Positions 33,343-57,366 are shown, counted from the first letter of the stretch. The stretch is 64,000 nucleotides of DNA from Candidatus Spechtbacteria bacterium (GCA_016188605.1 JACPHP010000009.1:24786-88785), one strand, 5' to 3'. Notes: a model not told the origin generated them from the letters alone. Numbers and translations: made by a program.

Positions 33343-34713
33343 CTACAATTGTAGTATTTTTTGTTTTATTATCTCAAATTCCTCTCTAAAAAATTCATCT
33401 TTTTTTAATTTTTCCGCAATTTTATTACAAGCATGCATAACTGTGGTATGATCTCTTCCCCCAAGTGTTTTGCCAATTAATGGATAGGAGGTGTGAATAA
33501 CTTCGCGCATGGCATACATAATAACCTGACGCGCGTGAGCGAGCTCTTTTCTTCTGTTTTTGCTTAATATTTCCTTTTCTTTAATATTATAAAACCCAGA
33601 CACTGCGGCAGTAATAACCTTGTGTGTTATGAGAGGACGAGAGTTTTTAACAATACCCCTTAATGCTTTTTTAGTATCTTCTAATGTGATTTGCCGATCT
33701 GGCTCATTTGCTTTAGATGTAAGCAGAATATTAAGAGCGCCTTCTAGCTCCCTCATATTTCTTTGTATTTGTTCCGCGATAAATTGAAGGATACTTAGGT
33801 GTAAATTAAGGTTTTTTTCTTTACATTTTGCTTGTAAAATGGCTAGTCGCATTTCATATTCTGGGTAACTGATATCAGCGATCATTCCTCCCTCGAAACG
33901 AGATCGCAATCTCTCCTCAAGTGTTGCAATTGATTGTGGCGGTCTGTCAGAGCTTAAAATAATTTGTTTATTGTTTTCGTAAAGAGTATTAAATGTGTGG
34001 AAAAACTCCTCTTGTGTTGTTACTTTACCGGCTATAAATTGAATATCATCAATGATTAGCGCGTCAATTTTCCTATAGCGCGCCTTAAATTCATCCATTT
34101 TTTTGTTGCGCATTGACACAACAAGATCGTTTAAAAAATGTTCAGAAGAAAGGTATCTAATTTTTTTTCCTTTTTGGAAAAATTCATTTCCTATGGCTTG
34201 CAAAAGATGTGTTTTACCAAGCCCCACCCCCCCGTATATAAATAAGGGGTTATAAAGTGTTCCGGGTTGTTTAATAATAGCTTGGGCTGCCGCATGAGCT
34301 ATTACATTTGAAGATCCCACTATAAATGAGTCAAAAGTATATTTTGAATTAAGTCCTGTCTCTTTATTTACCACTATGCGTTCCAAGGGCAGTTCGTATA
34401 AATTTGTTTTTTGCATCTGTTGTGGGGTAATCAAACGAACCCTAGTATTTTGAGTTAAGGGATTTTTTCGCGCGTTTATTATATAGCTTATTTCTTTTAT
34501 TTCAGGGGCAAGCGTTCTTATTGCCTTAAGTATATGTTTATGATATTTATTTTCTAACCATTCTTTAGCAAAGCCGCTAGGAACAGCAATAATAACCTCC
34601 CCATCATTTTTTGCAGTGATAGAAGTATTACGAAACCACGTTATGTAATTTGCGGGAGAAATTTGAAGCTCTATGTCGGCCAAAGCCGCTTGCCATAGTT
34701 CGTTCGGGTTCAT
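33343..34713 (-). CDS. dnaA: Chromosomal replication initiator DnaA
   Basis: Walker A GGVGLGKTHLLQAIGN, DDIQFIAGK, and C-terminal DNA-binding helix HTTVMHACNKI. 456 aa. Confidence 0.95.
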   Translation of the reverse strand: MNPNELWQAALADIELQISPANYITWFRNTSITAKNDGEVIIAVPSGFAKEWLENKYHKHILKAIRTLAPEIKEISYIINARKNPLTQNTRVRLITPQQMQKTNLYELPLERIVVNKETGLNSKYTFDSFIVGSSNVIAHAAAQAIIKQPGTLYNPLFIYGGVGLGKTHLLQAIGNEFFQKGKKIRYLSSEHFLNDLVVSMRNKKMDEFKARYRKIDALIIDDIQFIAGKVTTQEEFFHTFNTLYENNKQIILSSDRPPQSIATLEERLRSRFEGGMIADISYPEYEMRLAILQAKCKEKNLNLHLSILQFIAEQIQRNMRELEGALNILLTSKANEPDRQITLEDTKKALRGIVKNSRPLITHKVITAAVSGFYNIKEKEILSKNRRKELAHARQVIMYAMREVIHTSYPLIGKTLGGRDHTTVMHACNKIAEKLKKDEFFREEFEIIKQKILQL

Positions 34714-39936: not shown

Positions 39937-40689
39937 CTACGGAACTTGAATTTGATTAATATCAAGTATGGGCATGCGAATATCAAGCGTGGCAGGGTCA
40001 AATCCCTTTGAGCGAATCCAATCAAGCGCAAGACCTTCTTGCCCCTGCAGCTCGTCAAAAATCTCTTGGCGAGTTTTTAGTCGGTCTGCCGAATCAGAAG
40101 GAATATTTACTGATATAAGATAATGCGCTTTTAAGTTTGCTTCATCTGACACCCCATAATCAACATGGAATCCGTCTGATTCATGTGGTAGTAATCGTAG
40201 TAACGGATTAGCCTCCTCAAGGCGTTTTTGAAAATCTATTAATTGCGAATAACCAAGTTTATTGTACTCATAGGACTGCTTGGTATTAGAGAATCCTCTA
40301 ACTACGATTGGCGTTTGGTCTGAGGTTCTGAATTGTAGATTTCCTCGCACAGCACGGTTTAAAGGATTAAATCCTCGAGTATTTAACGAAATAGAGAAAT
40401 CTGTATTTAGTGAAAGATTTGGAACTGGAGTTATGGTAATATTGGGTCCACTTGTAGATATTCTTGCAAACTTAAGCATGTCTGGGTAATTACTTTGTAT
40501 TTGCCCGATAATATTATTCGGCAAAGAGCTACTAAATGTCATAATGATTTCAATATCGGGTGAGGTGGATACGTTTTTTGTCTCTGGAAAAGAAGAAACA
40601 AGCGTGATTGGCCACAGCAACTGTGTCAGTACGAGAGAGAGAACATATAAGAGTATCAATACCGGTAGTACTAATAAAAATCTTTTCAT
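39937..40689 (-). CDS. Hypothetical N-terminally anchored extracytoplasmic protein; last gene of the T4SS-like cluster (VirB8-like topology?)
   Basis: The ORF-track start at 40752 overlaps the upstream gene; the ATG at 40689 (MKRFLLVLPVLILLYVL...) gives a single N-terminal TM segment plus a domain of about 230 aa. No motif recognised. Confidence 0.35.
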   Translation of the reverse strand: MKRFLLVLPVLILLYVLSLVLTQLLWPITLVSSFPETKNVSTSPDIEIIMTFSSSLPNNIIGQIQSNYPDMLKFARISTSGPNITITPVPNLSLNTDFSISLNTRGFNPLNRAVRGNLQFRTSDQTPIVVRGFSNTKQSYEYNKLGYSQLIDFQKRLEEANPLLRLLPHESDGFHVDYGVSDEANLKAHYLISVNIPSDSADRLKTRQEIFDELQGQEGLALDWIRSKGFDPATLDIRMPILDINQIQVP

Positions 40690-40700
40690 AAGCGCACTAT

Positions 40701-42212
40701 TTAATTGCCAAACCCTATATAGCGATATGCATGCGTCATTCTTGATTGCCAACGATCAGGTCCGGTAGGAAGATAATTCTCTAAAGAAGCTTGCCATTCC
40801 CTTCTAACAACGCCATCAGCCCCCACTGGGTCGTCGAGCCAAATTGCAACATGTCCATCTGGCCCCCAACCATTGTTTGTAGGAAATAAAATATCACCCG
40901 GCCTTAATTGGCTAGAATCAGTTATGTTAACAAATTGAAAGTTCGGATTATTCTTAAGATAATCCTCTTGTGTTGGCGTGCCAATATCGGGAAAACTAGG
41001 ATCAATTGTTGCCTTTACAACGCTAGCTACGTAAATACCACAATCAGCACCATAGAAATTTGTTGCAGTCTTAAGGTAGAGTGGTTCTGCGTGAATATAA
41101 AGCTGGTGTTCGGGAGCGCTGGGATTAAGTGTTTGTTGGAAGGGTTTTATGGCAAATCCACGAGCAACGCGCGCGAAGTCGGTATACGTGGTTCCTCCAA
41201 CCACTCCCCCGCCAATTCCAGCACTTCCTCCAACCCCACCATAATACTGAAGCTTTATACTTGATACATCATTATCCCAATGATCAATAATACAACCATC
41301 CGTAAGGCAAATTAGATTGAAGTTAATAAATAATATTCCTGCCTTGTTTCTACTATCTCCGGTTACTTTAGATAAACAGTCCTGCGTTACGTTGCTGTCT
41401 AGAAACTTTTGTTTGCACGTATAAGTTGTGCCATGAACTGTTACTTCTATCCATCCTTTGGCCGGCTGGCCAGTATTGTTATTTGGATACTGGAAAAAAG
41501 TTGCCTTAGTATTTCCGGTAACAACTGCCATCTGAACCTTGCCATCATAATTACCCACAATGTTTCCAGCAGAATCAATAATTGGTAGGTTGTATAAATT
41601 TTCATTTCCCGGGATACTAATTGCAGTTGGGCAATTTTTTGTTATGTCAAAGGGTGGCGTGCCGTCTAATCTAGACAGGTCGTGTAATGCGTAAATGCAT
41701 ACGCCGTTTTGTAATCCTTGCGTCCCGCCTCCTACCGCGCCGGAAAGGGTTGGGAAGTCGGGATTGCTGCAAGCCGGCATGCCCGGAGCGCCGCATATTT
41801 TAAACGAACTTTCGCTCGGTGTAAGCAACTGCGGATTGATATTGGCAAGTAAAATATATGATCCGAGCAAGATTACCATGCCAACAAGAACATCGCGAAT
41901 GCGCTGCTGTGCTTTAAGCCGTTTCCACGGCGAGCCGGTTGAGGTGGCGAGCGTAAACATGGCGACCAGCAGCGCGCCCAACGCCATAAGCCCAGCAAGC
42001 CATAGCGCGCCGGCAAAAGCAAACTGCAAAATCTGCGGAATAGTTATACCGCCGGCGATTTGGTCTAGCGTGTTAAGTGTTTGGGGCAGATCTCCAAATC
42101 CGGGAATATGTGGGTATTGTAGTTCAAGAGCATTCGCCGAAGGCGAATACAAGAATCCCACAACCAAAAAAAGAGCGAAGAAAAATAGTTTTTGTAAAAT
42201 TTTTTTAATCAT
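40701..42212 (-). CDS. Secreted pilin-like (TrbC/VirB2-like two-helix) module fused to a C-terminal CHAP-type peptidoglycan peptidase domain
   Basis: Signal peptide ...SPSANA|LELQYPHIPGFGDL. Two hydrophobic helices (ILQFAFAGALWLAGLMALGALLVAMFTLA / VLVGMVILLGSYILLANINPQL). C-terminal YGADCGIYVA ... PDGHVAIWLDD, a Cys...His pair as in CHAP/NlpC-P60. Paralogous to the next two genes. Confidence 0.5.
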   Translation of the reverse strand: MIKKILQKLFFFALFLVVGFLYSPSANALELQYPHIPGFGDLPQTLNTLDQIAGGITIPQILQFAFAGALWLAGLMALGALLVAMFTLATSTGSPWKRLKAQQRIRDVLVGMVILLGSYILLANINPQLLTPSESSFKICGAPGMPACSNPDFPTLSGAVGGGTQGLQNGVCIYALHDLSRLDGTPPFDITKNCPTAISIPGNENLYNLPIIDSAGNIVGNYDGKVQMAVVTGNTKATFFQYPNNNTGQPAKGWIEVTVHGTTYTCKQKFLDSNVTQDCLSKVTGDSRNKAGILFINFNLICLTDGCIIDHWDNDVSSIKLQYYGGVGGSAGIGGGVVGGTTYTDFARVARGFAIKPFQQTLNPSAPEHQLYIHAEPLYLKTATNFYGADCGIYVASVVKATIDPSFPDIGTPTQEDYLKNNPNFQFVNITDSSQLRPGDILFPTNNGWGPDGHVAIWLDDPVGADGVVRREWQASLENYLPTGPDRWQSRMTHAYRYIGFGN

Positions 42213-43691
42213 TTATCGTGTTACCGGAGGATTCAAAGGGATTTTCGCTCCATTTGTTCCAAGAGGAACAAAACGATCATAGGTTGCTCCAAAATTTTTT
42301 ATAAAATTTGGATTATTCGCGCATATAAAATTTTGATTGGGACCGCAGAACCAACGTACCCACTCGGCAAAATCATTAGGGTGTTCGTTGTGAGTAAAGT
42401 TGATAAAACAATCAAGCGATTGTTGAAAGGGTACTGTAGATAATACACCGCCCGGAAAACATCCAAACCCGCTGGCCGCATCAACTCCCGGGCTTGATGC
42501 GCCAGACTCCTCGGCCCATATAGAAAAAGCAAAAGCCGGATTTATGGAATTAGCTATAGCGGCATCAATAACCCTTTGTCCTAGCTCTTCAACGCGATTG
42601 TCAGTGAATCCCATTGTGTCTAAAATATTTTTAGCCCTAGCAAGGTCTACTGCAACAGAAGAGTCTGTATGCGATATAGTATACGTGAGGGGCTGTGGAG
42701 GATTGATAACCGCTCCTCCTCCCAATAAACTTACCTTTATACTAGATATATCATCTTCCCAGCGGTCGCCAAAGGAACCACAGCTTGATTCTATACATAT
42801 ATTTTTAAAATTCACGTAAAGCAAACCGCCCTTATTCCTGGGGTCAGAGCCAAGATCGTTTTTACAATCATGTATATCTTGACCTGTATTAGGTTTGCGT
42901 CGGCAAGAGTAGTTGGCGCCATCTTTGATGATTTCTATCCATCCTTTGTCGTCTTGTCCTGCATTGTAGTCTCTGTATTGGTAAAAGGTGGCTTTTGTAG
43001 TAGTGCCTGTAATGATAGCGAAGTATACTTTACCATCCCAATTTAATGGTCCGCTCGATCCTGGTACAATGCGGGGATTATTAGTTAAATCTGCATCACC
43101 GGGCGGGATAATTTGAGCTGGGCAATCTTTTGTGATGTCAAAAGGTGTCCCTAGGTTTATAGGCGTTGTATCTAGCATACACACGCCTGACGTTAGGGAT
43201 AAAGTTGGGTCTATTTCGCTTCCTCCGCCCAATATGTCTGGGAAATCAGGATTCTTGCATTGAATTGTTCCTCCTCTGCCATCGGGCGCGCCACAAATAC
43301 GGAAATACTGGCCACCCAAGGTTAATAATTGGGGGTTAAGAAGGCCAAGGACGATGTATACGCCAAGCAGAATTACCACACCAATCATCACATCCCATAT
43401 TCTATTTTTTGCATTCATTTGTTTCCATGGCGCGCCTTGGGACGTGGCATACATAAATCCTGCTATAATAAGCGCCCCAAACGCCATTAGCCCCGCGATC
43501 CACAGTGAAAAAGCCAGCACGAATTGGACAAGCTGACCAATTCCAAGCGCGCCGCTATTGTAAAGCGTATTTAAATCCCCAAATCCCGGAATGGTGGGAT
43601 ATTGGAGCTCAAGAGCACGCGTGGGGGGAGCAATAACACTGAAAAGAATACTAGCTAAAAATATATATATTTTTTTATTTAGTTTAATCAT
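42213..43691 (-). CDS. Secreted pilin-like module fused to a C-terminal lysozyme-like (GH73/SLT-like) domain candidate
   Basis: Signal peptide ...PPTRA|LELQYPTIPGFGDL. Helices FVLAFSLWIAGLMAFGALIIAGFMYA / VMIGVVILLGVYIVLGLLNPQL. The central region is paralogous to 40701..42212 (TPFDITKDCPA, cysteine pattern). The C-terminal NPAFAFSIWAEESGASSPG resembles the catalytic Glu-Ser-Gly of GH73/GH23. Confidence 0.4.
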   Translation of the reverse strand: MIKLNKKIYIFLASILFSVIAPPTRALELQYPTIPGFGDLNTLYNSGALGIGQLVQFVLAFSLWIAGLMAFGALIIAGFMYATSQGAPWKQMNAKNRIWDVMIGVVILLGVYIVLGLLNPQLLTLGGQYFRICGAPDGRGGTIQCKNPDFPDILGGGSEIDPTLSLTSGVCMLDTTPINLGTPFDITKDCPAQIIPPGDADLTNNPRIVPGSSGPLNWDGKVYFAIITGTTTKATFYQYRDYNAGQDDKGWIEIIKDGANYSCRRKPNTGQDIHDCKNDLGSDPRNKGGLLYVNFKNICIESSCGSFGDRWEDDISSIKVSLLGGGAVINPPQPLTYTISHTDSSVAVDLARAKNILDTMGFTDNRVEELGQRVIDAAIANSINPAFAFSIWAEESGASSPGVDAASGFGCFPGGVLSTVPFQQSLDCFINFTHNEHPNDFAEWVRWFCGPNQNFICANNPNFIKNFGATYDRFVPLGTNGAKIPLNPPVTR

Positions 43692-43693
43692 AT

Positions 43694-46312
43694 TTAATTT
43701 ATGTTTTGTGCAAATGACTGGTAAGCTTGATATAGCGTATCCCAGTCACGATGGAATATGTGGTCCATTCCTCGGTCGCGATCACCGTCACCGTTATCAG
43801 TAGGTGTTGCCATAAATCCCCACTGACAGTAAAATCCTGTTCCTGCGGTAAAGGCTTTTTGCATGTCATCGCTGATATTTTGAGAACGGTCGTCATTTGG
43901 TCCCGCGTTAAAACCCGCCTCATCAAGTATATAGGGTTTATTTTGCTGTTGGGCAATCCATAAATCTTGATCATTAAATCCATTATAGGAGTGAGCGCCA
44001 ACGAAGTCGAAAGAATTATAAAGATCAAGCGCTTGATCTTGAGATAAGCCCGCCTGCTCTGTTTTTTCTAAACCTGTTCCTATCAAATGATATGGATCTT
44101 GTTTTCGTATTTCATCAGCCATATTTTTCATAAAGGCAACTAAATCTTCATTGTTTCCTCCCTGAAGAGTGTTGTTGCGCAACTCATTACCTACTTGCCA
44201 TGCAAATATGCCAGGATGCCTGCCGCCTCCTATTTGTTCTGTGATAAGGCGTACCCATGGCAGGTAGTTTTGTCTAAAACCTTGTTTAAACCACTGTGGA
44301 TTGAGCACCGCAGGTATGTTGGGCGAGCCATCAGATTGATAATACGCATCGTCTCCTGGTGGGGAAAAACCAGTTTGGAACCAATCGGTTAGTGCAACAA
44401 TAACTCGCATATCGTATTGATAATAGGCCTTATCGAGAAAAATTCGTACACGATCCACTGATTGTTGCGGAGTGAGAGAATTGTTCGCCCCAAACAGTCT
44501 TATGACTTTCACACCCATTGCTTTTGCAGCGGCAAGCTGGGTATCTTCTGTGCCACCCGCTTGTTGTACATATCCTACACCAGCGCCATAGTGCGCCAGT
44601 CCCCTATTGCTTATGCAGATACCTCGAAAAGGGGTTGTTCCCAGGACAAAATTTTTGCCATTACTACTAACCACTCCAGCGATAGGCGCCGACGAATTTC
44701 CTGGTGGTCTTCCATTCCCACCTCCACTCGACCCACCTCCTCCGGTGGTTCCTCCTCCCCCGGCCGCGCCTCCGCCAACTCCAAGCGCGCTTGCCCCGTC
44801 GCAAAAATAGAAATCTTCATTGCGGCAGGTTTGGGTATCTGTGCGCGTAGCTGTGTCGGGGCAGCAAAAGTCGCTGCTGCTACAGTAAACATTTTCGTGT
44901 ATCGCTGATTTTTTCTTTGTTTCGTTACAAGTGGTAAGCCAAAGGTTGTGAGGAGTAGCGGGGTCATAGTTTGCAATTGCAAGCACTCCCAGAGGATCAA
45001 TTTGTTCGGCAAGATACGCCAAGCTTGCTGTGGAGTTTGCGTCTGTGCCAAGCGCCTGAAGCCGGGCGCGAAAGGCGTTAAGCTGGGCAAGCTTCGCCCA
45101 TGTATCTGGTGAGCAGGATTTGTCGTAATTATTGTACGCGCCACCCTGCCTATTTTCGCAATTTCCAGCCGCCGTGCCAATACCCGCAGAACAGGTTGTG
45201 GACGAGGGGCATACAAACTGGGTGTTTGAACACGAGCACGCGTTGATGGCATTAGATATGGAATTGATATTATCAATAAGCGCCTGTTCTTTTTGTAATA
45301 ATTCCGGAATTTTTAGTGTCAGTCTTCTAAAAGTCGTATGGTCTGTGTTGCCGCAAAAATAATCAGTACTCTCAGCGCAGTCAGTGCAGTTTTTTGCCAA
45401 ATCAGAGAAAGGTACTGCCAGCGAATAATTTAATAGCTCGCCCGAAATAGTCACGCACGATTGAATTTGCGCACGTATTGGTTTAATCTCGTTATTCCAA
45501 AAAGTGCGAAGGTCGTTAAGAATATTAATTGTTTCTCCAAGCAATGTATTGGCTGTACCGCGAGCTGCGCATGGCTCCGGGCTTCCTCCAGATGACTGTG
45601 TGCAGGGATCTGCGACGCATGTAGACGGCGGCTGGCACTCCCAACCGCAAGAAGTGCAATCTTTCCCGCAAGACCTGCATATGTAAGCGCCCGGAGTATA
45701 GGGGGTGGGTGTTATCCCTTGGCACGCGCTTGCGGAACAGCCCGCGAGTCCATCTTTTACTTTGGTTACCAGACCGTTGTAGATTAGCCCATCCGGCAGA
45801 GAATTATACATATCTTGTATTAACACATCCGTGTTATCAAGCGCTTTCCCCAACGCGTATTTTGAAAATTGGCTGCCGGGAGCAATGGTATTGGGAATAT
45901 TAGGCGAAATTGTTGATACGGAAATATCAGGGAACGCCGGTGCTTCGCGAAAACCCAGGGTGGTCAGCTGAGGATTTATGAAATTTAAAAAAATTACCGC
46001 GCCAAGCAGCATCAGTATGCCTACGATAATGCTAATGATATGGTTACGAGCCGCAAGGCGTTTCAAGGGCGTTTGTCCGCTTGTGGCAAGCTGGAAACCG
46101 ATCATAATTATTCCCGCAACAGCCACTAAACTGCCTACGCCAAGCGATGCGTTAAAAATAATTTTAGTAATTTCGCCGATTGTAAGAGTATCTTTAATTG
46201 GTAAAAAGGAAGGATATGAAAGCTCCAGCGCTTGAGCTGGATGAACGACAAAAAGGCCGAAGATGAGCGCTGTGGCCAGGTAAGGCAATGCATCTATAAT
46301 TTTTTTAAGCAT
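43694..46312 (-). CDS. Large secreted pilin-like module / Cys-rich region / Gly-rich linker / C-terminal GH5-like (clan GH-A) glycoside hydrolase domain
   Basis: Signal ...HPAQA|LELSYPSF. Helices SLVAVAGIIMIGFQLATSG / IISIIVGILMLLGAVIFLNFINPQL. Many Cys residues; GGGAAGGGGTTGGGGSSGGGNG linker. C-terminal motifs FAWQVGNELRN (NE acid/base), VGAHSY (His-x-Tyr), ILDEAGF (nucleophile Glu) and QWGF (Trp) follow the GH5 order of conserved residues. Confidence 0.5.
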   Translation of the reverse strand: MLKKIIDALPYLATALIFGLFVVHPAQALELSYPSFLPIKDTLTIGEITKIIFNASLGVGSLVAVAGIIMIGFQLATSGQTPLKRLAARNHIISIIVGILMLLGAVIFLNFINPQLTTLGFREAPAFPDISVSTISPNIPNTIAPGSQFSKYALGKALDNTDVLIQDMYNSLPDGLIYNGLVTKVKDGLAGCSASACQGITPTPYTPGAYICRSCGKDCTSCGWECQPPSTCVADPCTQSSGGSPEPCAARGTANTLLGETINILNDLRTFWNNEIKPIRAQIQSCVTISGELLNYSLAVPFSDLAKNCTDCAESTDYFCGNTDHTTFRRLTLKIPELLQKEQALIDNINSISNAINACSCSNTQFVCPSSTTCSAGIGTAAGNCENRQGGAYNNYDKSCSPDTWAKLAQLNAFRARLQALGTDANSTASLAYLAEQIDPLGVLAIANYDPATPHNLWLTTCNETKKKSAIHENVYCSSSDFCCPDTATRTDTQTCRNEDFYFCDGASALGVGGGAAGGGGTTGGGGSSGGGNGRPPGNSSAPIAGVVSSNGKNFVLGTTPFRGICISNRGLAHYGAGVGYVQQAGGTEDTQLAAAKAMGVKVIRLFGANNSLTPQQSVDRVRIFLDKAYYQYDMRVIVALTDWFQTGFSPPGDDAYYQSDGSPNIPAVLNPQWFKQGFRQNYLPWVRLITEQIGGGRHPGIFAWQVGNELRNNTLQGGNNEDLVAFMKNMADEIRKQDPYHLIGTGLEKTEQAGLSQDQALDLYNSFDFVGAHSYNGFNDQDLWIAQQQNKPYILDEAGFNAGPNDDRSQNISDDMQKAFTAGTGFYCQWGFMATPTDNGDGDRDRGMDHIFHRDWDTLYQAYQSFAQNIN

Positions 46313-46821: not shown

Positions 46822-48639
46822 CTATTGTGCAACTTCTTCTGCGGGTTCATTTTCCAACTCCTCCCTCGCTTTTTCTATCTGCAATAATTGCACCGGGTCA
46901 GATGTAATTATTTGGTCTTCAGTGTAAGAGGCAATAACCTTAATTGCCACATGTTTTGTGCCTGCAAAGAAGAGTCCCTCCCCCACCGCGCCCTCAAGCA
47001 GTAAGTATTTTTCTTCATCCGTGAGGTGAAAGGTATTTTGCACAACATCGATAGAGGCGGGCGACTGCTTTAGCAAAAGCTGTAGTGATGAGTTAGTCAC
47101 AATGGGTTTACCGTAATTAGACACCATAAAATCGCTAACATCTTGGCTGATAGTAGTAAGCCCCATGTAGTATTTGCGGCAGCGCTTGGCGATGGCATAA
47201 AGAAACGCCGCGCTATTTTCGTGTTGCATCATCCACCACGCCTCGTCAATAATTAACACGCGTTTTTTGAGAGTTCGGCGAATTGTGTCCCAAATGTAGT
47301 GCAGAATGAGAAACATGGCGACGGGGCGAAGTTCGTCTTCCATGTCGCGGATATTAAATACCACAAGCTGGCTATCAAGATTTATATTCGTCGGCTGGTT
47401 CAAGAATCCAGCGTAAATTCCTTCCACATACGGTTGTAGGCGCAGAGCAAGCGATTCCGCTCCCTCAATATTTTGTAACACCGTATAAAGATCACCCATG
47501 CGCGGCGGTACTATTCCTTCAAAATTTTCTCTTTCTGGAGTTATGTCACGCGAGGCGTATGTTTGGGTTATTGCTTGATCGAGCAAGGATTCTTCTTCTG
47601 GTGTCATGGTTCCTAGCATAACTTTCACCAGGCCCATTAGGGTTACGACGGTACTGCGCAGCACATCAGACGCATTTTCATCGGTACCAACCGGTGGCAG
47701 GTCAAAAGGATTAATATGATGTTCGGACGTTAGCGAGAGTTTGAAAAACGACCCGCCGACAGTTTCTGCAAGATATTGGTATTCGTTTTCAGGGTCAATT
47801 ACCAGTACGTCGTCGCCAAACATTAAGGAGCGCAATATTTCTAGCTTAATAGCATAGCTTTTTCCAGCACCAGATTTTCCAAAAACTACAGCGTTGGCGT
47901 TCTCCAAAGAGAATCTATCAAAAAGAATTAAACTGGAGTTGTGGCGATTAATGCCATACAATATACCCTTGTCTGCCGTTAAATCAAAAGAAACAAAGGG
48001 AAATATTGATGAAAGCGGGCTGGTATTTAAGCTGCTATATATAAGAAGCTCATCAAACAGAACCGGCAGAGAGGAATTGAATCCAGCTGTTTGCTGATAA
48101 AGAGCGGGTTTCATGTACACCATGCGGCTTTCAAGCACCGCGCGAACCTCAGACTCTATCTGCTCAAGTCCTTTTTCTGAAGTGGCATAAATAGTAATGT
48201 ATAAGCCAAACTTAAACATTTTTTCTTCCGCTTGTTGAAGCTTATCGCGCAGTTCTTCAATATTTTGGTAGGCGGCATCAAGGATAGGGTCGCGTATCAG
48301 GCCTTTTTCCGAACGCTCCATCAGGTCTGCTTCAACCGAAGTAATCTGCCGCTCAAGGGTTTTTAATATCTGTTCTGTGGACAATGGGTGGATAAACATT
48401 GAAACATCCACTGCATTACCCATGTTTATTATCGGCGAGAACCAGTTAGTGGTTAAAAAACGAGGATAGCTGAATACAAAAAGCGTTCTCGCGTAGCTGT
48501 CGCCGAGTTTTATGAAAGAGGCGTTAATTTCAAGCGCGGCAGGCGCTATAATATCGCGCAGAGTTTGCAGTTGCTGTTTGTTAGCCTCTGGGCTCTGCGC
48601 AAGCGCGTTTTCAAATTGTTGATTGGTATCTTTTGGCAT
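46822..48639 (-). CDS. VirB4/TraC/CagE-family ATPase, C-terminal (P-loop) portion; it appears to be the second half of a split VirB4
   Basis: Walker A VVFGKSGAGKSYA and the VirB4-typical Walker B LIIDEAWWMM (DEAW). Central VirB4-like region ...FVFSYPRFLTTNWFSPIINMGNAVDVSMFIHP... At 605 aa it is about 200 aa short of a typical VirB4. Confidence 0.7.
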   Translation of the reverse strand: MPKDTNQQFENALAQSPEANKQQLQTLRDIIAPAALEINASFIKLGDSYARTLFVFSYPRFLTTNWFSPIINMGNAVDVSMFIHPLSTEQILKTLERQITSVEADLMERSEKGLIRDPILDAAYQNIEELRDKLQQAEEKMFKFGLYITIYATSEKGLEQIESEVRAVLESRMVYMKPALYQQTAGFNSSLPVLFDELLIYSSLNTSPLSSIFPFVSFDLTADKGILYGINRHNSSLILFDRFSLENANAVVFGKSGAGKSYAIKLEILRSLMFGDDVLVIDPENEYQYLAETVGGSFFKLSLTSEHHINPFDLPPVGTDENASDVLRSTVVTLMGLVKVMLGTMTPEEESLLDQAITQTYASRDITPERENFEGIVPPRMGDLYTVLQNIEGAESLALRLQPYVEGIYAGFLNQPTNINLDSQLVVFNIRDMEDELRPVAMFLILHYIWDTIRRTLKKRVLIIDEAWWMMQHENSAAFLYAIAKRCRKYYMGLTTISQDVSDFMVSNYGKPIVTNSSLQLLLKQSPASIDVVQNTFHLTDEEKYLLLEGAVGEGLFFAGTKHVAIKVIASYTEDQIITSDPVQLLQIEKAREELENEPAEEVAQ

Positions 48640-48815: not shown

Positions 48816-49481
48816 TTATTCTGGTGCGGTATAACTTTCTTCAAGAGGTTTCATCATAGCGCGTTTTTTAAGGCCTTGTGGGTTATATAGATTCCAGAAA
48901 AGGACAATCAGCTCTTCTGTTTCAAGTTGTTTGGTAAGTAAGCCCATGCGATGAAGACCAGCCGCGACAAAATCTAGGCGTTGTTCAAGCTGTGTGCGGT
49001 AATGAGCAAATTGTTGTTCCTTTAATTCTTCGCCCCCGCCGCCAATACCGAACATTCCCAGCAATCCCTTCCCTCCCCCGCTGGTTATAGCACCTTGCTC
49101 AAAAGGGTTTAGAGGAGCTACGACAAAAAAATCAGTGGAGACAATATTTGTGGTTTCAACAAATTCTTTTATAAACTTGCGATACTCTTGTGTCTGTATG
49201 CGTAAAAGGTCGTTATTTTGACGGGATTCAAGATCGGCAAGCGTGGCGATATATTCATCAATATTTAAGAATCGCGAATTGATGAATATCTGTATGTCAA
49301 AATCAAGTGAATTCAGAAAGCTTTGAAACGCGAAGATAATCGCGTCTTGCTCTTCCTGCGATTTTAACGCGAAGTTGATGCTGGACACGCGAAGCACGCC
49401 GCGCATTCCCCCGCCCTTGAGGATGAGGACGCCATCGCGGATTGCGTCAATACGGACAAAGTTTTGAGTGGAGAAAGCCAT
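48816..49481 (-). CDS. VirB4 N-terminal-domain-like protein (CagE_TrbE_VirB-type); candidate first half of the split VirB4
   Basis: MAFSTQNFVRIDAIRDGVLILKGGGMRGVLRVSSINFALKSQEEQDAIIFAFQSFLNSLDFDIQIFINSRFLNIDEY follows the VirB4 N-domain pattern as I recall it. 221 + 605 aa gives 826 aa, a typical Gram-positive VirB4 length. Confidence 0.5.
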   Translation of the reverse strand: MAFSTQNFVRIDAIRDGVLILKGGGMRGVLRVSSINFALKSQEEQDAIIFAFQSFLNSLDFDIQIFINSRFLNIDEYIATLADLESRQNNDLLRIQTQEYRKFIKEFVETTNIVSTDFFVVAPLNPFEQGAITSGGGKGLLGMFGIGGGGEELKEQQFAHYRTQLEQRLDFVAAGLHRMGLLTKQLETEELIVLFWNLYNPQGLKKRAMMKPLEESYTAPE

Positions 49482-49602: not shown

Positions 49603-50004
49603 TTATTTTTTGTCTATCCTCTGTGCCAACTGTTGTATCTGTTCTCGAGTAACCGAAGCACCCGGCCGAGCAAACTGACCCACCTCTTTTTTGATCTTAG
49701 TCGGTGTTTCCGCTTGTTTTTGCGGCGCTCTAGTCCATACGTATACGCGCGGCGAGACAGTAAAGGTAAGGAAATTCATGAAAAAATCAGCAAAGGGTTT
49801 CTCGTTTACGCGTACAAAAGCAAGCACAAGAGTCACGATTGAAATAATTATCGCGACAGGGAAGAAAAGAAAAGACTCTAGTATAAAATATAGGCCGACA
49901 ATAACCGCGCCCGCCCCGACAACCGTTAGTGTTTGGGGCAAGGTGAGCGATGCGAGAATTTTCTCCTCAAGATCAATGAATTTTGGGACTTGGAATTGCT
50001 GCAT
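49603..50004 (-). CDS. VirB3-like small two-TM membrane protein (PrgI/TcpE-like position upstream of VirB4)
   Basis: 133 aa with two adjacent TM helices (TLTVVGAGAVIVGLYFILESFLFFPVAIIISIVTLVLAFVRV). It directly precedes the VirB4 N-domain gene. Assignment by topology and position only. Confidence 0.4.
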   Translation of the reverse strand: MQQFQVPKFIDLEEKILASLTLPQTLTVVGAGAVIVGLYFILESFLFFPVAIIISIVTLVLAFVRVNEKPFADFFMNFLTFTVSPRVYVWTRAPQKQAETPTKIKKEVGQFARPGASVTREQIQQLAQRIDKK

Positions 50005-50378: not shown

Positions 50379-52862
50379 TTACGTTCCTCTCTTATTGTAT
50401 ATTTGTTGAAGTATCTTAATATAAGCCGCTCGTCGTGCTGGCGAAGGTTCATCTTGTATAGCATCGTTTACAGCCTTTCGATATCGTTCAAGATTTTCCG
50501 GCGTTTCGTTAAGATTGTACGTGGCTTCAGTCTGTTCTACTTGCGCGCGTAAACGATTTTGTTGTTCTTCTAACTCGGCCTTGTACTGTTCTTTTTGTGC
50601 TTGCTCCGCTTCTTTTTTAGCCGCTTCTGCTTTGGTGACAAAATTAGCGTTTTTACCACTCTCTGATGTAGGCGGAGTTGGCGCAGGCGTTGGCTTAGAA
50701 ACAAAATCTCCCTCTGGTGTTCTTGTAATATTATGTTGCTCCATTATTCTATCAAGGTCTTCCTGGCTCATAGATTCACCAGTAGTAGCCGTTGGTAGTG
50801 GAGGAGGTGTTTGTACTGAAGGGGGAGTTTGAACTGGAGTAGCGGCCGTAGGTTTTGGAGAGCTTGGTGGTGTAGGCGGCGGAGTTGGCGCGGGTGTTGG
50901 ACCAGATGGTGGTTGTTGCCATGGAGGAACAATAGTTCCAGGTTGGCTTGCGCCTCCTGCTCCAGGAGTTGCGCCGGGCGTTCCTTCACCCGCAGTCGTG
51001 CCACCACTCCCCGGAGTTGGTATATACATATTAGGTATTCTCGGGTCGATTTGTTGCGCCTGGAAAGTTGCTGTAAATTGAGCAAACTTTTTATTTTCAT
51101 TATTAAACTTCAGAAGCGCCGCAGGGTCGTTATATATTTTAATAAGCTGATCAACCACCGCATCCATAACATCCGGGTTATAGTTATCATGAATGTTTCT
51201 TAAATGCGTTGCTTGAATACCCCATACCCAATCTGCCACATTATTCTTTATTTCATCAGGAGAGATTTTATCTGGATCAAACCTGCCAGGAGTAGGGATT
51301 TTGTTTACTTTTTTCGGCGCCATTCCTCTAGCAAGACCAGCACCCATAGCCGCGCCAGCTGGACCTAGGCCAGCTAATTGTTTTTGTGCAAATGGCACAG
51401 ATCCCTTAACCGCTTCCCCTGCTTTTTTCTTGCCAGCCGTGTATCCCGCCTTGGCTTGAGATTTAACATATTTGCCAGCCGTCGTAGCGCCAGGAACTTG
51501 ACCTAATACACTACCAACTTTTCCTGCTACCGTGCTAGCCTTTGTTTTAGCGCCAGCATAAGCCCCCCCAATTTTTTGACCTACAGGAGTGCCGGCAATT
51601 CTGGTTTTTGCCGCGCGATAGCCCGTGCGGCCAACACCAACAGTAGCTCGGCCAGTTTTCTTTCCCATCCAAGTACCTGCCGCAGTTCCCCATTTTGTGC
51701 CATTGCTGACGATAAGCTTTGATCCTACCGCGCTAAATGAGAAGCTGATCATGAACCCGACGAACAGTGTGCCGATTGCAAACAGTAGCATGATGGCATT
51801 GCACATATTGGCATTCTGCAAAATGGTGAGGCCAGTTCCAGTCGTCGCATCATACGCTGTAATTGTATTGTATGATCCAGTAATGCCAGAGGGATTAGTA
51901 AAGGAAAAGTTAGTACACAGCGCGTTTCCTGATGCAATGAATCTCGCCGCCAGCCAGTAGAATAGTCCCAGTGGAATGGGTAATATTGCCCACTGGAAAA
52001 AATTACCCCACCATTGGCTAAAGTATTTTCTTGTTTCAGGAAGAATATATGCTACAAACGCAAGCGGTGAGATGATAACCAGAATCCACACAGCAAGAAT
52101 TCGTATGAGTATGAGCAGAGACATTGCTACAAACGCGGCTATTGAAAGAATATGGAAAATCACATCAACCAAAGCTTGGGCGAATACTCCAAACGCGACG
52201 CCGACGTCACCGGTAAATATTGTTTTAAGAGCCGTTAGCCATATTGAGCCAAGTGTGCTGAACGCGGGCAAGAAAAGCTTCCATCCCCCGCCAGCTCCAC
52301 CAGCATCAAAAAATATTTTTGTAAGAATGTTTGTGACATCTATAATAAAGCCAGTTATTACGGGTGTGAAGTTAATGAGTAGCGCAATTCCAATAAAGGG
52401 TATTAAAAGTTTTCGCCATCGTTCCGTTCCCAATTCCAGTATTGTGCTAACCGCAATTGCAATTAGCACAAACACAAGTCCTATATTTGCCAGATCGCGC
52501 ATCACGCCCCACGCGATTGTAATAACAGTGTTCGCAGCCGCCGGGTTTGCGGGGGTGTAGGGGACGGCAAGAGAAAAATTAATTATTGCGTCCATCACAG
52601 CGCCCATAATAATTGCAAAAACGGTAAGTATCGTACTGATGATGACAAGAATGGTTGTTACGATTGCAACAAGTAACGCAGTGAGGCGAGATGCAAAGAA
52701 CCCAACTATAGCATCGTAGAATGCATCTCCAATAACATTGGCAGAAGCTATGTGGGTTGGCATCAACAGACCAATAGAAACTAAACAAAACAAGGATAAC
52801 AAAATTACCGCAGTGCTTTGTGTGGAATGCTTGGTGAAAAATTTCACTATAGATTTCATCAC
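50379..52862 (-). CDS. VirB6/TrbL-like polytopic membrane protein with a long Pro/Thr-rich and coiled-coil C-terminal extension
   Basis: Signal/TM N-terminus and about 8 TM helices. Segment VIISPLAFVAYILPETRKYFSQWWGNFFQWAILPI resembles the TrbL/VirB6 core (PF04610-like). C-terminus PTPAPTPPPTPPSSPKP... then a charged helical region. First gene of the cluster. Confidence 0.45.
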   Translation of the reverse strand: MMKSIVKFFTKHSTQSTAVILLSLFCLVSIGLLMPTHIASANVIGDAFYDAIVGFFASRLTALLVAIVTTILVIISTILTVFAIIMGAVMDAIINFSLAVPYTPANPAAANTVITIAWGVMRDLANIGLVFVLIAIAVSTILELGTERWRKLLIPFIGIALLINFTPVITGFIIDVTNILTKIFFDAGGAGGGWKLFLPAFSTLGSIWLTALKTIFTGDVGVAFGVFAQALVDVIFHILSIAAFVAMSLLILIRILAVWILVIISPLAFVAYILPETRKYFSQWWGNFFQWAILPIPLGLFYWLAARFIASGNALCTNFSFTNPSGITGSYNTITAYDATTGTGLTILQNANMCNAIMLLFAIGTLFVGFMISFSFSAVGSKLIVSNGTKWGTAAGTWMGKKTGRATVGVGRTGYRAAKTRIAGTPVGQKIGGAYAGAKTKASTVAGKVGSVLGQVPGATTAGKYVKSQAKAGYTAGKKKAGEAVKGSVPFAQKQLAGLGPAGAAMGAGLARGMAPKKVNKIPTPGRFDPDKISPDEIKNNVADWVWGIQATHLRNIHDNYNPDVMDAVVDQLIKIYNDPAALLKFNNENKKFAQFTATFQAQQIDPRIPNMYIPTPGSGGTTAGEGTPGATPGAGGASQPGTIVPPWQQPPSGPTPAPTPPPTPPSSPKPTAATPVQTPPSVQTPPPLPTATTGESMSQEDLDRIMEQHNITRTPEGDFVSKPTPAPTPPTSESGKNANFVTKAEAAKKEAEQAQKEQYKAELEEQQNRLRAQVEQTEATYNLNETPENLERYRKAVNDAIQDEPSPARRAAYIKILQQIYNKRGT

Positions 52863-56022: not shown

Positions 56023-57366
56023 GTGAAAGACTTAAAGCCACAAACTCCTTTAGGCGTACATATGGGCGCAAGAGGATTTTCAAGGCCTATTCGCAAAACC
56101 ATACAACATTCTGTGTCCGCGGACGCCCCTAGGGGAGCAGCAGTAAGCGCGCTACAAAGCGTGCAAGCTGTTACCACCAAGGGGATCGCATCGCGGGTAG
56201 AGAACTACATAACCATTCCACATAAAGAGTTGCCACGTTTTTTCCCAAACACTCTTAAAGGAATGATTCTTACCACAGCGCATCGTTTTTTGCGCTTTGT
56301 TGCGTATAATGCGGCGTGGTCAGGAATTGGCGCCATTGTGCTTGTTGTGGGTGTTGGTAACGTCATACAGCCGCAGTTTCCAGTAGATTTTGGATTTATT
56401 CGTGATGTTGGTCAAGAAAATTTTGTTCAAGAGGTAGAAGCCATGCCCAAGATGACCGTGGTAACACCCATACTTACGCCAAGTTTGTTTTTTGTGAGCG
56501 GATATAATTCCGTGCCCGGCGCAGATATAGAGGCTTCTATATACAGGGGCGTAGGCGGACCAGCGGATAATGAAATATTTATTTCAATAGAAGATGCCAC
56601 GGTGGTTGCCTCCTCTTCTCCGCTTACCATTGCAGCATCGGCAAATCAACGTAAGAAAATTGAAAAATACATTGTGCAAGATGGCGATACGCCCTCTAGT
56701 ATTGCGGCAGCTTTCGGTATTACCACAAATACGCTTCTATGGGCAAATAGTTTAAGGGATGGCGATTATATTCGCCAAGGGCAGGAACTTAGTATATTGC
56801 CTGTGTCGGGCGTAAGCTACCAAGTGAAGAGTGGTGATACTCTTTTATCTATATCAAAGCAATTTAATGGTAACGCAAGCGCAGTTATTGCGTATAATAA
56901 ACTTGCCTCAAGTGGCGACTTGAGCGCTGGTGAAACTATTATTATTCCCGATGGAGAGATGCCTAAACGTCAATATGCTTTGGCGTCTTCGCGAGTATAT
57001 ACTTATGGAGGGCAAGATTTGGGCGGTTACTTTTTAAAGCCAGCCGCGGGCTATATTAGTCAAGGGCTTCATCCTAATAATGCCGTTGATATCGCAAATG
57101 CTTGCTGGACTCCTGTTTATGCTGCTGCAGAGGGTACGGTTGTTATTGCTGATTCTTACGGATGGAATGGTGGATATGGGCAATATGTTCGCATTCGTCA
57201 TCCCAACGGAGTTGAAACAGTTTATTCTCATGCTATTAAGTTAGTAGTATCAGCCGGTCAAAAAGTTACGCGCGGGCAACTTATTGAATATATGGGTGAA
57301 ACGGGTCGCGCCACGGGATGCCATGTGCACTGGGAAGTTTATGGAGCAAAAAACCCCTTAAGATAA
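56023..57366 (+). CDS. LysM-domain M23-family (LytM-like) peptidoglycan endopeptidase
   Basis: Two LysM repeats (YIVQDGDTPSSIAAAFGITTNTLLWAN and YQVKSGDTLLSISKQF). M23 motifs HPNNAVDIA, GGYGQYVRIRHPNGVETVYSHA and GETGRATGCHVHWEV. N-terminal TM segment. Confidence 0.8.
   Translation: MKDLKPQTPLGVHMGARGFSRPIRKTIQHSVSADAPRGAAVSALQSVQAVTTKGIASRVENYITIPHKELPRFFPNTLKGMILTTAHRFLRFVAYNAAWSGIGAIVLVVGVGNVIQPQFPVDFGFIRDVGQENFVQEVEAMPKMTVVTPILTPSLFFVSGYNSVPGADIEASIYRGVGGPADNEIFISIEDATVVASSSPLTIAASANQRKKIEKYIVQDGDTPSSIAAAFGITTNTLLWANSLRDGDYIRQGQELSILPVSGVSYQVKSGDTLLSISKQFNGNASAVIAYNKLASSGDLSAGETIIIPDGEMPKRQYALASSRVYTYGGQDLGGYFLKPAAGYISQGLHPNNAVDIANACWTPVYAAAEGTVVIADSYGWNGGYGQYVRIRHPNGVETVYSHAIKLVVSAGQKVTRGQLIEYMGETGRATGCHVHWEVYGAKNPLR

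Follow-up and report, generated by a model that had tools for sequence, protein, structure and literature searches.

Pilin-type membrane modules joined to three different putative envelope hydrolases in a type IV secretion operon of Candidatus Spechtbacteria

The P3-P2-P1 locus

The locus described here lies in a window of 64,000 nucleotides (the whole stretch of DNA that was analysed) from a Candidatus Spechtbacteria bacterium (GCA_016188605.1, JACPHP010000009.1:24786-88785), an ultrasmall member of the Parcubacteria group of Patescibacteria, and consists of three tandem genes, P3, P2 and P1 in the order of transcription, whose products share an N-terminal membrane module and differ in their C-terminal domains (Table 1). 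The first-pass annotation, made from the sequence alone, had proposed three tandem paralogs with a common N-terminus and three different C-termini; the open reading frames (ORFs) lie exactly where it had placed them, all on the minus strand and nearly contiguous, and the similarity among their products is far beyond chance, with a match of P1 to P2 at E=4e-77 and 39-52% identity among the N-terminal ~125 residues of the three proteins. In particular, the start of P3 overlaps the upstream ORF of 120 amino acids (aa) by 8 nt, 2 nt separate the P3 stop from the P2 start (TAA-AT-ATG), and the stop of P2 abuts the ATG of P1 (TAAATG). P1 and P2 are identical to HYV65_01750 and HYV65_01755, respectively, which are hypothetical proteins at NCBI from a Candidatus Spechtbacteria metagenome-assembled genome (MAG), and full-length P1 retrieved only P1 and P2 from a word index of 5.8 billion proteins. 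An artefact of assembly or gene fusion was rejected, as the ORFs are continuous under translation table 11 and the architecture recurs in most relatives and in L003, a syntenic contig from an independent sequencing run.

On the evidence of sequence and gene order, P1-P3 constitute the distal part of a chromosomal type IV secretion system (T4SS) operon of the Gram-positive type, and each protein is predicted to be exported by Sec and to be composed of a membrane module (the stem), a spacer and a C-terminal domain (the head). The operon encodes, in this order, a VirB6-like protein, a protein of 119 aa, PrgI, a TrsD-like protein, VirB4, the protein of 120 aa, P3, P2, P1, and a secreted Ig-like protein; at its P3-P2-P1 end stops and starts overlap or abut. 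A scan of the operon for promoters and terminators gave counts near those expected from shuffling.

Table 1. Features of the P3-P2-P1 locus and of the other operon genes, in nucleotides counted from the first letter of the window.
Feature	Coordinates	Strand	Residues (aa)	Evidence
P3 gene: pilin-type hairpin, Cys-rich region, poly-Gly linker, predicted GH5 domain	43694..46312	(-)	872	ORF
P2 gene: pilin-type hairpin, βγ-crystallin-like domain, predicted GH73-like lysozyme-fold domain	42213..43691	(-)	492	ORF
P1 gene: pilin-type hairpin, βγ-crystallin-like domain, Gly-rich linker, putative papain-like (NlpC/P60-CHAP-type) domain	40701..42212	(-)	503	ORF
P3 predicted signal peptide, ...HPAQA/LELSYP	46229..46312	(-)	1-28	Read from sequence; A-Q-A site
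P2 predicted signal peptide, ...PPTRA/LELQYP	43614..43691	(-)	1-26	Read from sequence
P1 predicted signal peptide, ...SPSANA/LELQYP	42129..42212	(-)	1-28	Read from sequence
P3 PF18895-type module	45959..46228	(-)	29-118	Pfam T4SS_pilin E=2.8e-3 (sub-threshold); NCBIfam Mbov_0395 E=2.3e-5; local hidden Markov model (HMM) E=1.3e-27
P2 PF18895-type module	43317..43613	(-)	27-125	Pfam T4SS_pilin E=4.3e-3 (sub-threshold); local family HMM E=8.5e-38
P1 PF18895-type module	41820..42128	(-)	29-131	No direct Pfam match; NCBIfam pilin-like E=9.6e-3; local HMM E=2.5e-35
P2 middle domain, βγ-crystallin-like	42729..43307	(-)	129-321	P1/P2 pair, HMM, PDB profile
P1 middle domain, βγ-crystallin-like	41247..41810	(-)	135-322	P1/P2 pair, HMM, PDB profile
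P3 Cys-rich region, 26 Cys in 383 aa	44798..45946	(-)	123-505	Cys count; no Pfam match
P3 Gly-rich linker, GASALGVGGGAAGGGGTTGGGGSSGGGNGRPPGNSS	44678..44797	(-)	506-545	Sequence
P3 predicted GH5 (clan GH-A) catalytic domain	43697..44677	(-)	546-872	PDB and family-profile matches
P2 C-terminal lysozyme-fold domain, predicted GH73-like, W-x-E394-E395-S	42216..42701	(-)	331-492	Family A6, AlphaFold 2 (AF2) model, Foldseek
P1 C-terminal putative Cys/His peptidase; candidate C391, H454, E472	40704..41186	(-)	343-503	Weak library matches
Extended VirB6/TrbL-like polytopic protein	50379..52862	(-)	827	Pfam TrbL E=4.7e-4 (sub-threshold); position as VirB6 in candidate phyla radiation (CPR) loci of PMC12102498
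PrgI (VirB3-like) protein	49603..50004	(-)	133	Pfam PrgI E=6.3e-10
TrsD-like/VirB4 N-terminal-domain-like protein	48816..49481	(-)	221	NCBIfam VirB4_plasma E=4e-9, TrsD E=5.7e-4
VirB4-type ATPase	46822..48639	(-)	605	Pfam P-loop_TraG E=9e-28, AAA_10, CagE_TrbE_VirB
Polytopic membrane protein between virB4 and P3	46305..46667	(-)	120	ORF; no family match
Secreted/anchored protein, N-terminal hydrophobic segment	39937..40686	(-)		Weak Ig-like Big_5 E=8.7e-3

The shared N-terminal module

The three proteins begin with a Lys-rich basic n-region and a hydrophobic h-region, followed by an AxA/TxA site directly before the sequence L-E-L-(Q/S)-Y-P. Two hydrophobic helices come after this stretch in all three, connected by a loop of 12-13 residues that, in the hydropathy and charge analysis, contains three Lys or Arg and neither Asp nor Glu, and the second helix is closed by N-P-Q-L; in P1, the helices (residues 58-90 and 95-125) are the sole moderately confident part of the AF2 model. 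The two-helix hairpin with a short polar loop and a terminal NPQL described in the first-pass annotation is seen, in fact, in every one of the proteins. Of the 'A/LEL(Q/S)YP(x)IPGF' stretch that had been called strictly conserved, LEL(Q/S)YP holds in all three, but IPGF occurs only in P1 and P2, P3 having SFLPIKD at this place.

Because of the positive-inside rule, the loop is predicted to be cytoplasmic and the mature N-terminus and the part following NPQL to be outside; an extracytoplasmic place of the extensions is consistent with the distribution of cysteines (9, 12 and 28 in the three proteins), since all of them sit in the extensions and none in the modules. A hairpin with both ends outside also agrees with P0020, a protein encoded in L003 in which an internal module is placed between two domains of the extracytoplasmic type. 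A simple uncleaved signal anchor was considered and rejected: in each protein, three distinct hydrophobic segments can be told apart, the AxA site following the first, that is, a signal peptide followed by a two-helix hairpin, and the relatives overwhelmingly belong to PF18895.

The motifs at the two ends of the module are family-wide and not private to P1-P3. Among 147 related modules, the residues of LExxYP are conserved at 84% (L), 82% (E), 85% (Y) and 98% (P), Ser and Pro of the loop at 95% each, G111 at 100%, and N and P of NPxL at 92% and 97%, respectively. LELQYP had been proposed to be a processing or sorting signal and it does occupy the cleavage-site position, but the motif is more than a cleavage site: the internal module of P0020, which has no directly preceding signal peptide, starts with 'LQLQYP', and for this reason LExxYP appears to belong to the functional module and not merely to a signal-peptidase site.

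A profile built on the three modules retrieved 9,902 proteins at E<=1e-3, including 1,082 at E<=1e-10, from 1.84 billion cluster representatives. The module is filed in the PF18895 'T4SS pilin' family because 110 of the 117 best relatives match PF18895, with a best E=1.2e-51; P1, P2 and P3 all match, below its cut-off, NCBIfam NF045849, the 'Mbov_0395 family pilin-like conjugal transfer protein'. Among GTDB genomes, the alignment of the modules found just two distant Saccharibacteria loci. The match to Pfam TrbC is limited to E=0.62 in P3, and 2 of the 117 relatives match this family, with E about 5e-4. The TrbC/VirB2 pilin architecture read in the first pass is thus borne out in layout and genomic context but not in sequence homology, and the likeness to VirB2/TrbC is one of layout and genomic context, for which no homology is claimed; 'pilin' is used here as a family label that comes from Pfam and from structure-based annotation (Wang et al. 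2023, PMC10633639, Table S2).

The spacer of P1 and P2

Between the module and the head, P1 and P2 have in common a middle domain of ~190 aa (E=4e-44) that the first-pass annotation does not mention. An iterated HMM ties this domain to relatives with fused pilin modules that bear Pfam Crystall or Inhibitor_I36 over the corresponding stretches, and its profile (A11), searched against the PDB, has microbial βγ-crystallins at the top, with 3hzb at E=8.7e-4 and clostrillin at 0.079, together with γ-crystallins, spherulin 3a and protein S.

The three C-terminal domains

The head of P3 is firmly predicted to be a clan GH-A glycosidase of family GH5, in agreement with the GH5-like TIM barrel that had been proposed from the segments GNE, AHSY and ILDEAG, all of which are present. 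The single sequence already matches the GH5 mannanase 3pz9 in the PDB (E=3e-6), WELANE standing opposite WQVGNE in the alignment and VLEEYG opposite ILDEAG, and Pfam PF00150 gives E=4e-4 on the head alone (20.3 bits, cut-off 23.5). A search seeded by the head found ten relatives of 24-40% identity, several of which have a precomputed PF00150 match; the profile made of eight sequences (A8) matches 13 GH5 mannanases in the PDB with E=2e-31 to 6e-18 over ~290 of 322 positions, the best being 3ziz (E=2.2e-31) and 3pz9 (E=3.5e-28). R605, N709, E710, H774, Y776, E798 and W831 are invariant in A8; N709-E710 are predicted to be the acid/base and E798 the nucleophile, and the β3 His of the canonical GH5 set was not located in the P3 head. 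The nearest solved relatives are β-mannanases of roughly 20-30% identity, too distant to fix the substrate.

The Cys-rich region and the poly-Gly linker that had been read ahead of the GH5 domain are both there. The sole relative found for the Cys-rich region is P0114, encoded in the syntenic L003 (E=2e-45). The nearest relatives of the P3 head, P0152-P0159 (about 34-42% identity), are uncharacterised proteins of non-CPR MAGs, including one from a Myxococcales MAG, in which the domain is joined to CarboxypepD_reg, SH3_3 and F5/8 type C modules. Since these relatives include the Myxococcales MAG protein and carry other attached modules, sequence comparison suggests that the GH5 head of P3 was acquired horizontally.

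The head of P2 is lysozyme-like in its modelled fold, with GH73 as the closest family; the candidate lysozyme recognized in the first pass by the motif SIWAEESG, which is present, is confirmed at the level of the fold. No Pfam, PHROG or NCBIfam family matches this head, including Pfam Glucosaminidase, SLT and SLT_3. It defines a CPR-restricted family of ten members (A6) with invariant W62, E64 and E65 and conserved cysteines, in which E394, E395 and S396 of P2 are invariant or nearly so. The AF2 model obtained with the A6 alignment reached a predicted local distance difference test score (pLDDT) of 82.6 and a predicted template modelling score (pTM) of 0.84, and the top 14 Foldseek matches of this model are all GH73 enzymes (template modelling score 0.39-0.57, probability 0.18-0.93, E about 0.1-1.2). 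In the search of the PDB with the P2-head profile, the sole match was the C. difficile glucosaminidase, a weak one (E=0.14) in which IWIEESG aligns over ISIHETG.

The head of P1 is likely to be a papain-like cell-wall peptidase or amidase, as judged from its motifs and from library matches. The CHAP-like Cys/His peptidase of the first pass stands as far as the motifs YGADCG and GHVAIW are concerned, but the family support is weak: the head matches the PHROG endolysin families phrog_7887 (E=4.1e-5) and phrog_8781 (E=4e-4) and, sub-threshold, Pfam NLPC_P60 (E=0.015, 15.7 bits, cut-off 23) over a span that includes the Cys and His regions, and it has no match to Pfam CHAP. The best phage match by tblastn (E=8) is an Arthrobacter phage endolysin in which the matched stretch corresponds to Pfam CHAP, LRPGDILF..GPDGHVAI of P1 being aligned to IRPGDIAVF..NPYGHVEV, so that the His strand falls in a CHAP alignment. 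C391, H454 and E472 are present, the last at position +18 from the His, in an order and spacing that we take to be those of the CHAP/NlpC-P60 triad. Sequence searches with the P1 head found no homologs among 5.8 billion proteins and nothing in the PDB, and an approximate LysK CHAP sequence used as a query against the collected proteins gave nothing significant.

The operon and its genomic setting

The ATG at 40686 lies 13 nt past the stop of P1, and the gene at 39937-40686 is probably the last of the operon, encoding a further surface component. Upstream of P3, the 120-aa membrane protein is kept at the same position in L003 (1852-2295, E=3.6e-31). VirB4 appears to be split: the 221-aa protein, similar to its N-terminal domain, is encoded immediately upstream of the P-loop protein of 605 aa, and in the contigs L013 and L015 orthologs of this small protein adjoin VirB4. 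Among the window ORFs scanned, a part of the total, neither a relaxase nor a coupling protein turned up.

dnaA is located at 33343-34713, beside the minimum of the cumulative GC skew (about 32-36 kb), and its position together with this minimum places the T4SS operon (39.9-52.9 kb) 5-19 kb from the likely origin; CPR T4SS loci near the origin are reported for many CPR genomes (PMC12102498). On that side of the origin, the strand on which the operon is transcribed is not the leading one. Two other genes of the window may be mentioned: at 56023-57366 (+), 3 kb past the operon and on the opposite strand, a gene encodes a protein that combines a Peptidase_M23 domain with two LysM domains, and a PilB-type T2SSE ATPase (type IV pilus) is encoded at 20661-22382 (+).

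Relatives and other CPR loci

An extension of at least 100 aa follows the last module in 133 of the 150 best relatives (median 237 aa), a figure that is biased to the LExxYP subfamily and is not valid for all PF18895 proteins. Among the 117 best relatives, the Pfam domains found are SLT (5), Crystall (4), Peptidase_M23 (2), SLT_3 (1), CHAP (1) and Inhibitor_I36 (1).

L003 encodes VirB4, the ortholog of the 120-aa protein, P0114, P0020, a pilin protein of 292 aa and P0012. P0114 has a stem like that of P3 and the Cys-rich region, without GH5; P0020 (4165-6507) is composed of a signal peptide, a domain of ~300 aa, a Gly/Pro linker, the internal pilin module, a crystallin-like spacer and SLT_3; P0012 has a stem, a spacer and Peptidase_M23. 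Stems and spacers are kept between L003 and the window and heads are exchanged. The N-terminal domain of P0020 has motifs resembling those of clan GH-A (AWQTLNE...TESG), but no Pfam or PDB match, and its alignment to the P3 family by hhalign extends over 19 columns only; relative to the window, a unit resembling a glycosidase seems to have crossed from one gene to another.

In three independent CPR contigs, the P2-type head occurs free of the module: P0151, P0166 and P0162 are immediate neighbours of arrays in which 6-8 short PF18895 pilins are encoded, PrgI and VirB4 being close by. The P2-type head is fused to the pilin module here and adjacent to pilin arrays elsewhere, which argues for a functional link between the module and this hydrolase family. 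The 'modular toolkit' of the first-pass annotation gains support from the VirB6-PrgI-VirB4 operon, from the M23 and SLT_3 heads of L003, and from these free heads beside pilin arrays, and none of the outcomes that it had named as contrary to its reading, namely heads unlike the CHAP, lysozyme or GH-A folds or a plain uncleaved anchor, was observed.

Two other arrangements are observed in the family. From two to four pilin modules per polypeptide occur in 22 of the 150 closest relatives (P0004-P0011, P0016, P0017, P0021 and others), which could represent genuine pilin concatemers or, where the lineage has recoded a stop codon, gene calls that read through it. The reverse polarity, with an N-terminal extension and a C-terminal module, is found in ORFs of 359, 473 and 247 aa, measured stop to stop, at L013 4778-5824, L014 16292-17668 and L015 3688-4410, respectively.

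Interpretation of the locus

The explanation that accounts best for these observations, held here with moderate confidence, is that stems of the pilin family hold hydrolases at the T4SS in order to breach the cell's own wall and/or the envelope of a host. With the hairpin in the membrane and both of its ends outside, the spacer and the enzyme would project from the cell surface; by analogy with classical VirB2, the hairpin could dock the enzymes to the T4SS in the way in which pilin-type subunits are handled by VirB4 and VirB6, and this docking would gather the hydrolases at the points where the apparatus passes through the wall of its own cell and makes contact with the host envelope. The peptidase of P1 and the glycan-strand hydrolase of P2 would supply the VirB1-type job of PrgK, TraG and CwlT, and P3 would add an activity against a non-peptidoglycan β-glycan layer. 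The sequences show the domain identities (firmly for P2 and P3, weakly for P1), a topology with spacer and head outside, the place in the operon, the synteny, and the link between fused and neighbouring hydrolases; we infer that the hairpin docks or polymerises, which substrates are cut, and whether self or host is attacked. The presence of a GH5 head argues that the target, at least in part, is something other than the peptidoglycan of the cell itself.

Several points weigh against this explanation. The direct PF18895 scores of P2 (17.5 bits) and P3 (18.2 bits) are under the gathering score of 26.6 bits and P1 has none, so that all three are sub-threshold; a module profile of 29 sequences matched no pilin in the PDB; and the alignment of the module by hhalign with five genuine VirB2/TrbC proteins of plasmids of mating-pair-formation type T (MPF-T), colinear over 63 columns, has a probability of 4.7%. 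The AF2 model of full-length P1, made from an alignment of three sequences, is unusable (pLDDT 35.9), and the identity of the P1 head rests on weak sequence evidence. A GH5 enzyme would be superfluous for remodelling the cell's own peptidoglycan, and a pilus with tight packing would hardly accommodate heads of 40-80 kDa on each of its subunits, so that 'pilin' need not imply a filament here; in the literature on CPR T4SSs, no pilus has been observed for any of them. Finally, P1-P3 carry the only pilin modules of the 64-kb window, where there is no short pilin, and a major partner would be unseen if P1-P3 were minor or tip subunits.

Three other explanations can be set against the docked hydrolases. 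The modules might polymerise into a T4SS pilus or stalk in which every subunit, or only the tip or minor ones, bears a hydrolase, the whole acting as a drill that would bore by digestion through the wall of its own cell, the S-layer and the envelope of the host. The C-terminus of conjugative pilins is surface-exposed and tolerates added peptides, as known from display work with F-pilin, and the Gly-rich linkers and spacer domains would hold the heads off the filament; the PF18895 label and the T4SS context fit such a structure, as does the fact that the sole pilin modules of the window and of L003 are of this kind. Nevertheless, a pilus of this sort appears unlikely, given that the module has no homology to the pilins of solved pili, that extensions of 370-750 aa would crowd a helical filament, that a filament is seen in no CPR T4SS, and that short major pilins might sit in the genome outside the window. 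The hairpin of the PF18895 type could instead be a widespread surface anchor of CPR, P1-P3 being ordinary autolysins or nutrient-scavenging enzymes whose proximity to the T4SS is due to co-regulation or chance. The size of the family (9,902 representatives), the long extensions of 133 of the 150 closest relatives, and the diversity of the attached domains (crystallins, SLT, M23 and CHAP, and a dockerin on a pilin module in L014) are in line with a generic anchor, and, as CPR are deficient in many biosynthetic pathways, glycosidases and peptidases on the surface could serve to obtain material from the wall of a host. This account is quite unlikely in view of the tight translational coupling to the virB4 operon, which is kept in the independent contig together with the small membrane protein, of the free P2-type hydrolases beside pilin arrays and VirB4 at three other loci, and of the short family members that are essential T4SS-cluster genes in S. 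epibionticum (PMC10633639).

A quite improbable alternative is that the module is a signal for extraction and export, VirB4 pulling the hairpin from the membrane, as it does with pilins, and the whole protein then being set free, or passed to the surface or interior of the host cell, as a lytic effector. The scanned ORFs of the window include no coupling protein or relaxase, and most CPR loci are without them, from which a non-conjugative role has been argued (PMC12102498, PMC10633639); moreover, antibacterial T4SSs that deliver peptidoglycan hydrolases exist (X-T4SS; PMC8740702). On the other hand, the scan for a coupling protein covered part of the window ORFs, no candidate immunity proteins were identified in adjoining genes, and with Sec signal peptides and the catalytic part facing outside, the cell's own surface is reachable without any T4SS step. 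A broader reading, in which the T4SS 'pilin' of part of the CPR is a general display and export platform with arrays made wholly of stems with interchangeable heads, either catalytic or binding (CHAP-like, GH73-like, GH5, M23, SLT, crystallins, dockerin), is doubtful. If it were true, the essential T4SS would build an enzyme-bearing stalk that digests the host envelope and opens a feeding contact, and swaps of heads between paralogs or across gene boundaries would tune it to hosts, as occurs in evolved VgrG/PAAR proteins or in phage receptor-binding proteins.

The role of the T4SS in Patescibacteria was called 'completely unknown' in a 2024 perspective (PMC11665869); this system is without DNA-transfer parts, and the single species tested cannot grow as an epibiont without it. 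Pilin modules and hydrolases of the envelope are expected to work together, since they are fused at the P1-P3 locus and the P2-type hydrolase domain stands unfused next to pilin arrays elsewhere. The GH5 head suggests as target a glycan other than peptidoglycan, and this glycan might reveal which host envelope is concerned. In addition, surveys at PF18895 cut-offs score such genomes as pilin-less because the divergent stems fall below the Pfam thresholds.

Comparison with known systems

The closest known systems are the VirB2-like arrays of Patescibacteria (PF18895; Wang et al. 2023, PMC10633639; Quinonero-Coronel et al. 2025, PMC12102498), which have the same module family, signal peptide and hairpin and consist of divergent tandem paralogs in or next to a VirB4/VirB6/PrgI cluster, without relaxase and near oriC. 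The described pilins are stand-alone proteins of ~100-185 aa, whereas P1-P3 bear extensions of 370-750 aa ending in a hydrolase. The published survey lists VirB2 matches without lengths or added domains (PMC12102498), and loci like P1-P3, being sub-threshold in it (i-E<0.001), would be scored as VirB2-less. In S. epibionticum, SEML1_0006, which combines a Cys-proteinase domain with two lysozyme-like domains, and SEML1_0007, an M15 peptidase, both adjoin virB4 (PMC10633639, Table S2), the cluster includes six short pilins (SEML1_0014-0019), and hydrolases and pilins are both reported to be essential (PMC10633639, PMC12102498).

SEML1_0006/0007 and the VirB1-type hydrolases (PrgK of pCF10, TraG of pIP501, CwlT of ICEBs1, TcpG) resemble P1-P3 in being T4SS-encoded, beside virB4, with an N-terminal anchor, and in the combination of an extracytoplasmic glycosidase (SLT/lysozyme/GH73) with a CHAP or NlpC/P60 peptidase, which is predicted in P1-P2. 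VirB1-type hydrolases have a plain transmembrane anchor and both activities in one chain; in contrast, in P1-P3 the anchor is a hairpin of the pilin family, the activities are distributed over three paralogs, and P3 adds a predicted GH5 enzyme that has no peptidoglycan precedent. The head of P2 shares with the GH73 N-acetylglucosaminidases (LytB, AtlE, FlgJ, Auto) the predicted fold and a motif of the E-S-G type, but it has no Pfam match and belongs to a small CPR-restricted family with conserved cysteines; the head of P3 has the signature residues and profile matches of GH5 β-mannanases and cellulases.

Classical VirB2/TrbC proteins (PF04956; T-pilus, RP4, F-type) have a cleaved signal peptide, two helices with a short cytoplasmic/lumenal loop, the ends outside, and a place in a T4SS operon, as in P1-P3. 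Unlike them, P1-P3 show no detectable sequence or profile homology and come from a monoderm, and C-terminal trimming or cyclisation is inconceivable with their extensions. A further likeness, by analogy, is with the 'evolved' VgrG/PAAR spikes of the type VI secretion system and with phage tail lysins, where a structural subunit of a trans-envelope apparatus bears interchangeable lytic or effector domains and paralogs have different heads; the proteins and the machine are unrelated, and delivery in those systems is due to contraction-driven puncture.

CPR pilin arrays and T4SS-adjacent hydrolases have been described already (PMC10633639, PMC12102498, PMC12857230), and membrane-anchored multi-domain VirB1-type hydrolases of Gram-positive T4SSs are known. 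No description of fusions between pilin modules and hydrolases was found in the open full-text literature, a scope that excludes subscription journals, and database architecture pages may show such combinations. Pilin arrays and the wall hydrolases near them are separate items in the literature, and the P1-P3 locus joins both in single polypeptides.

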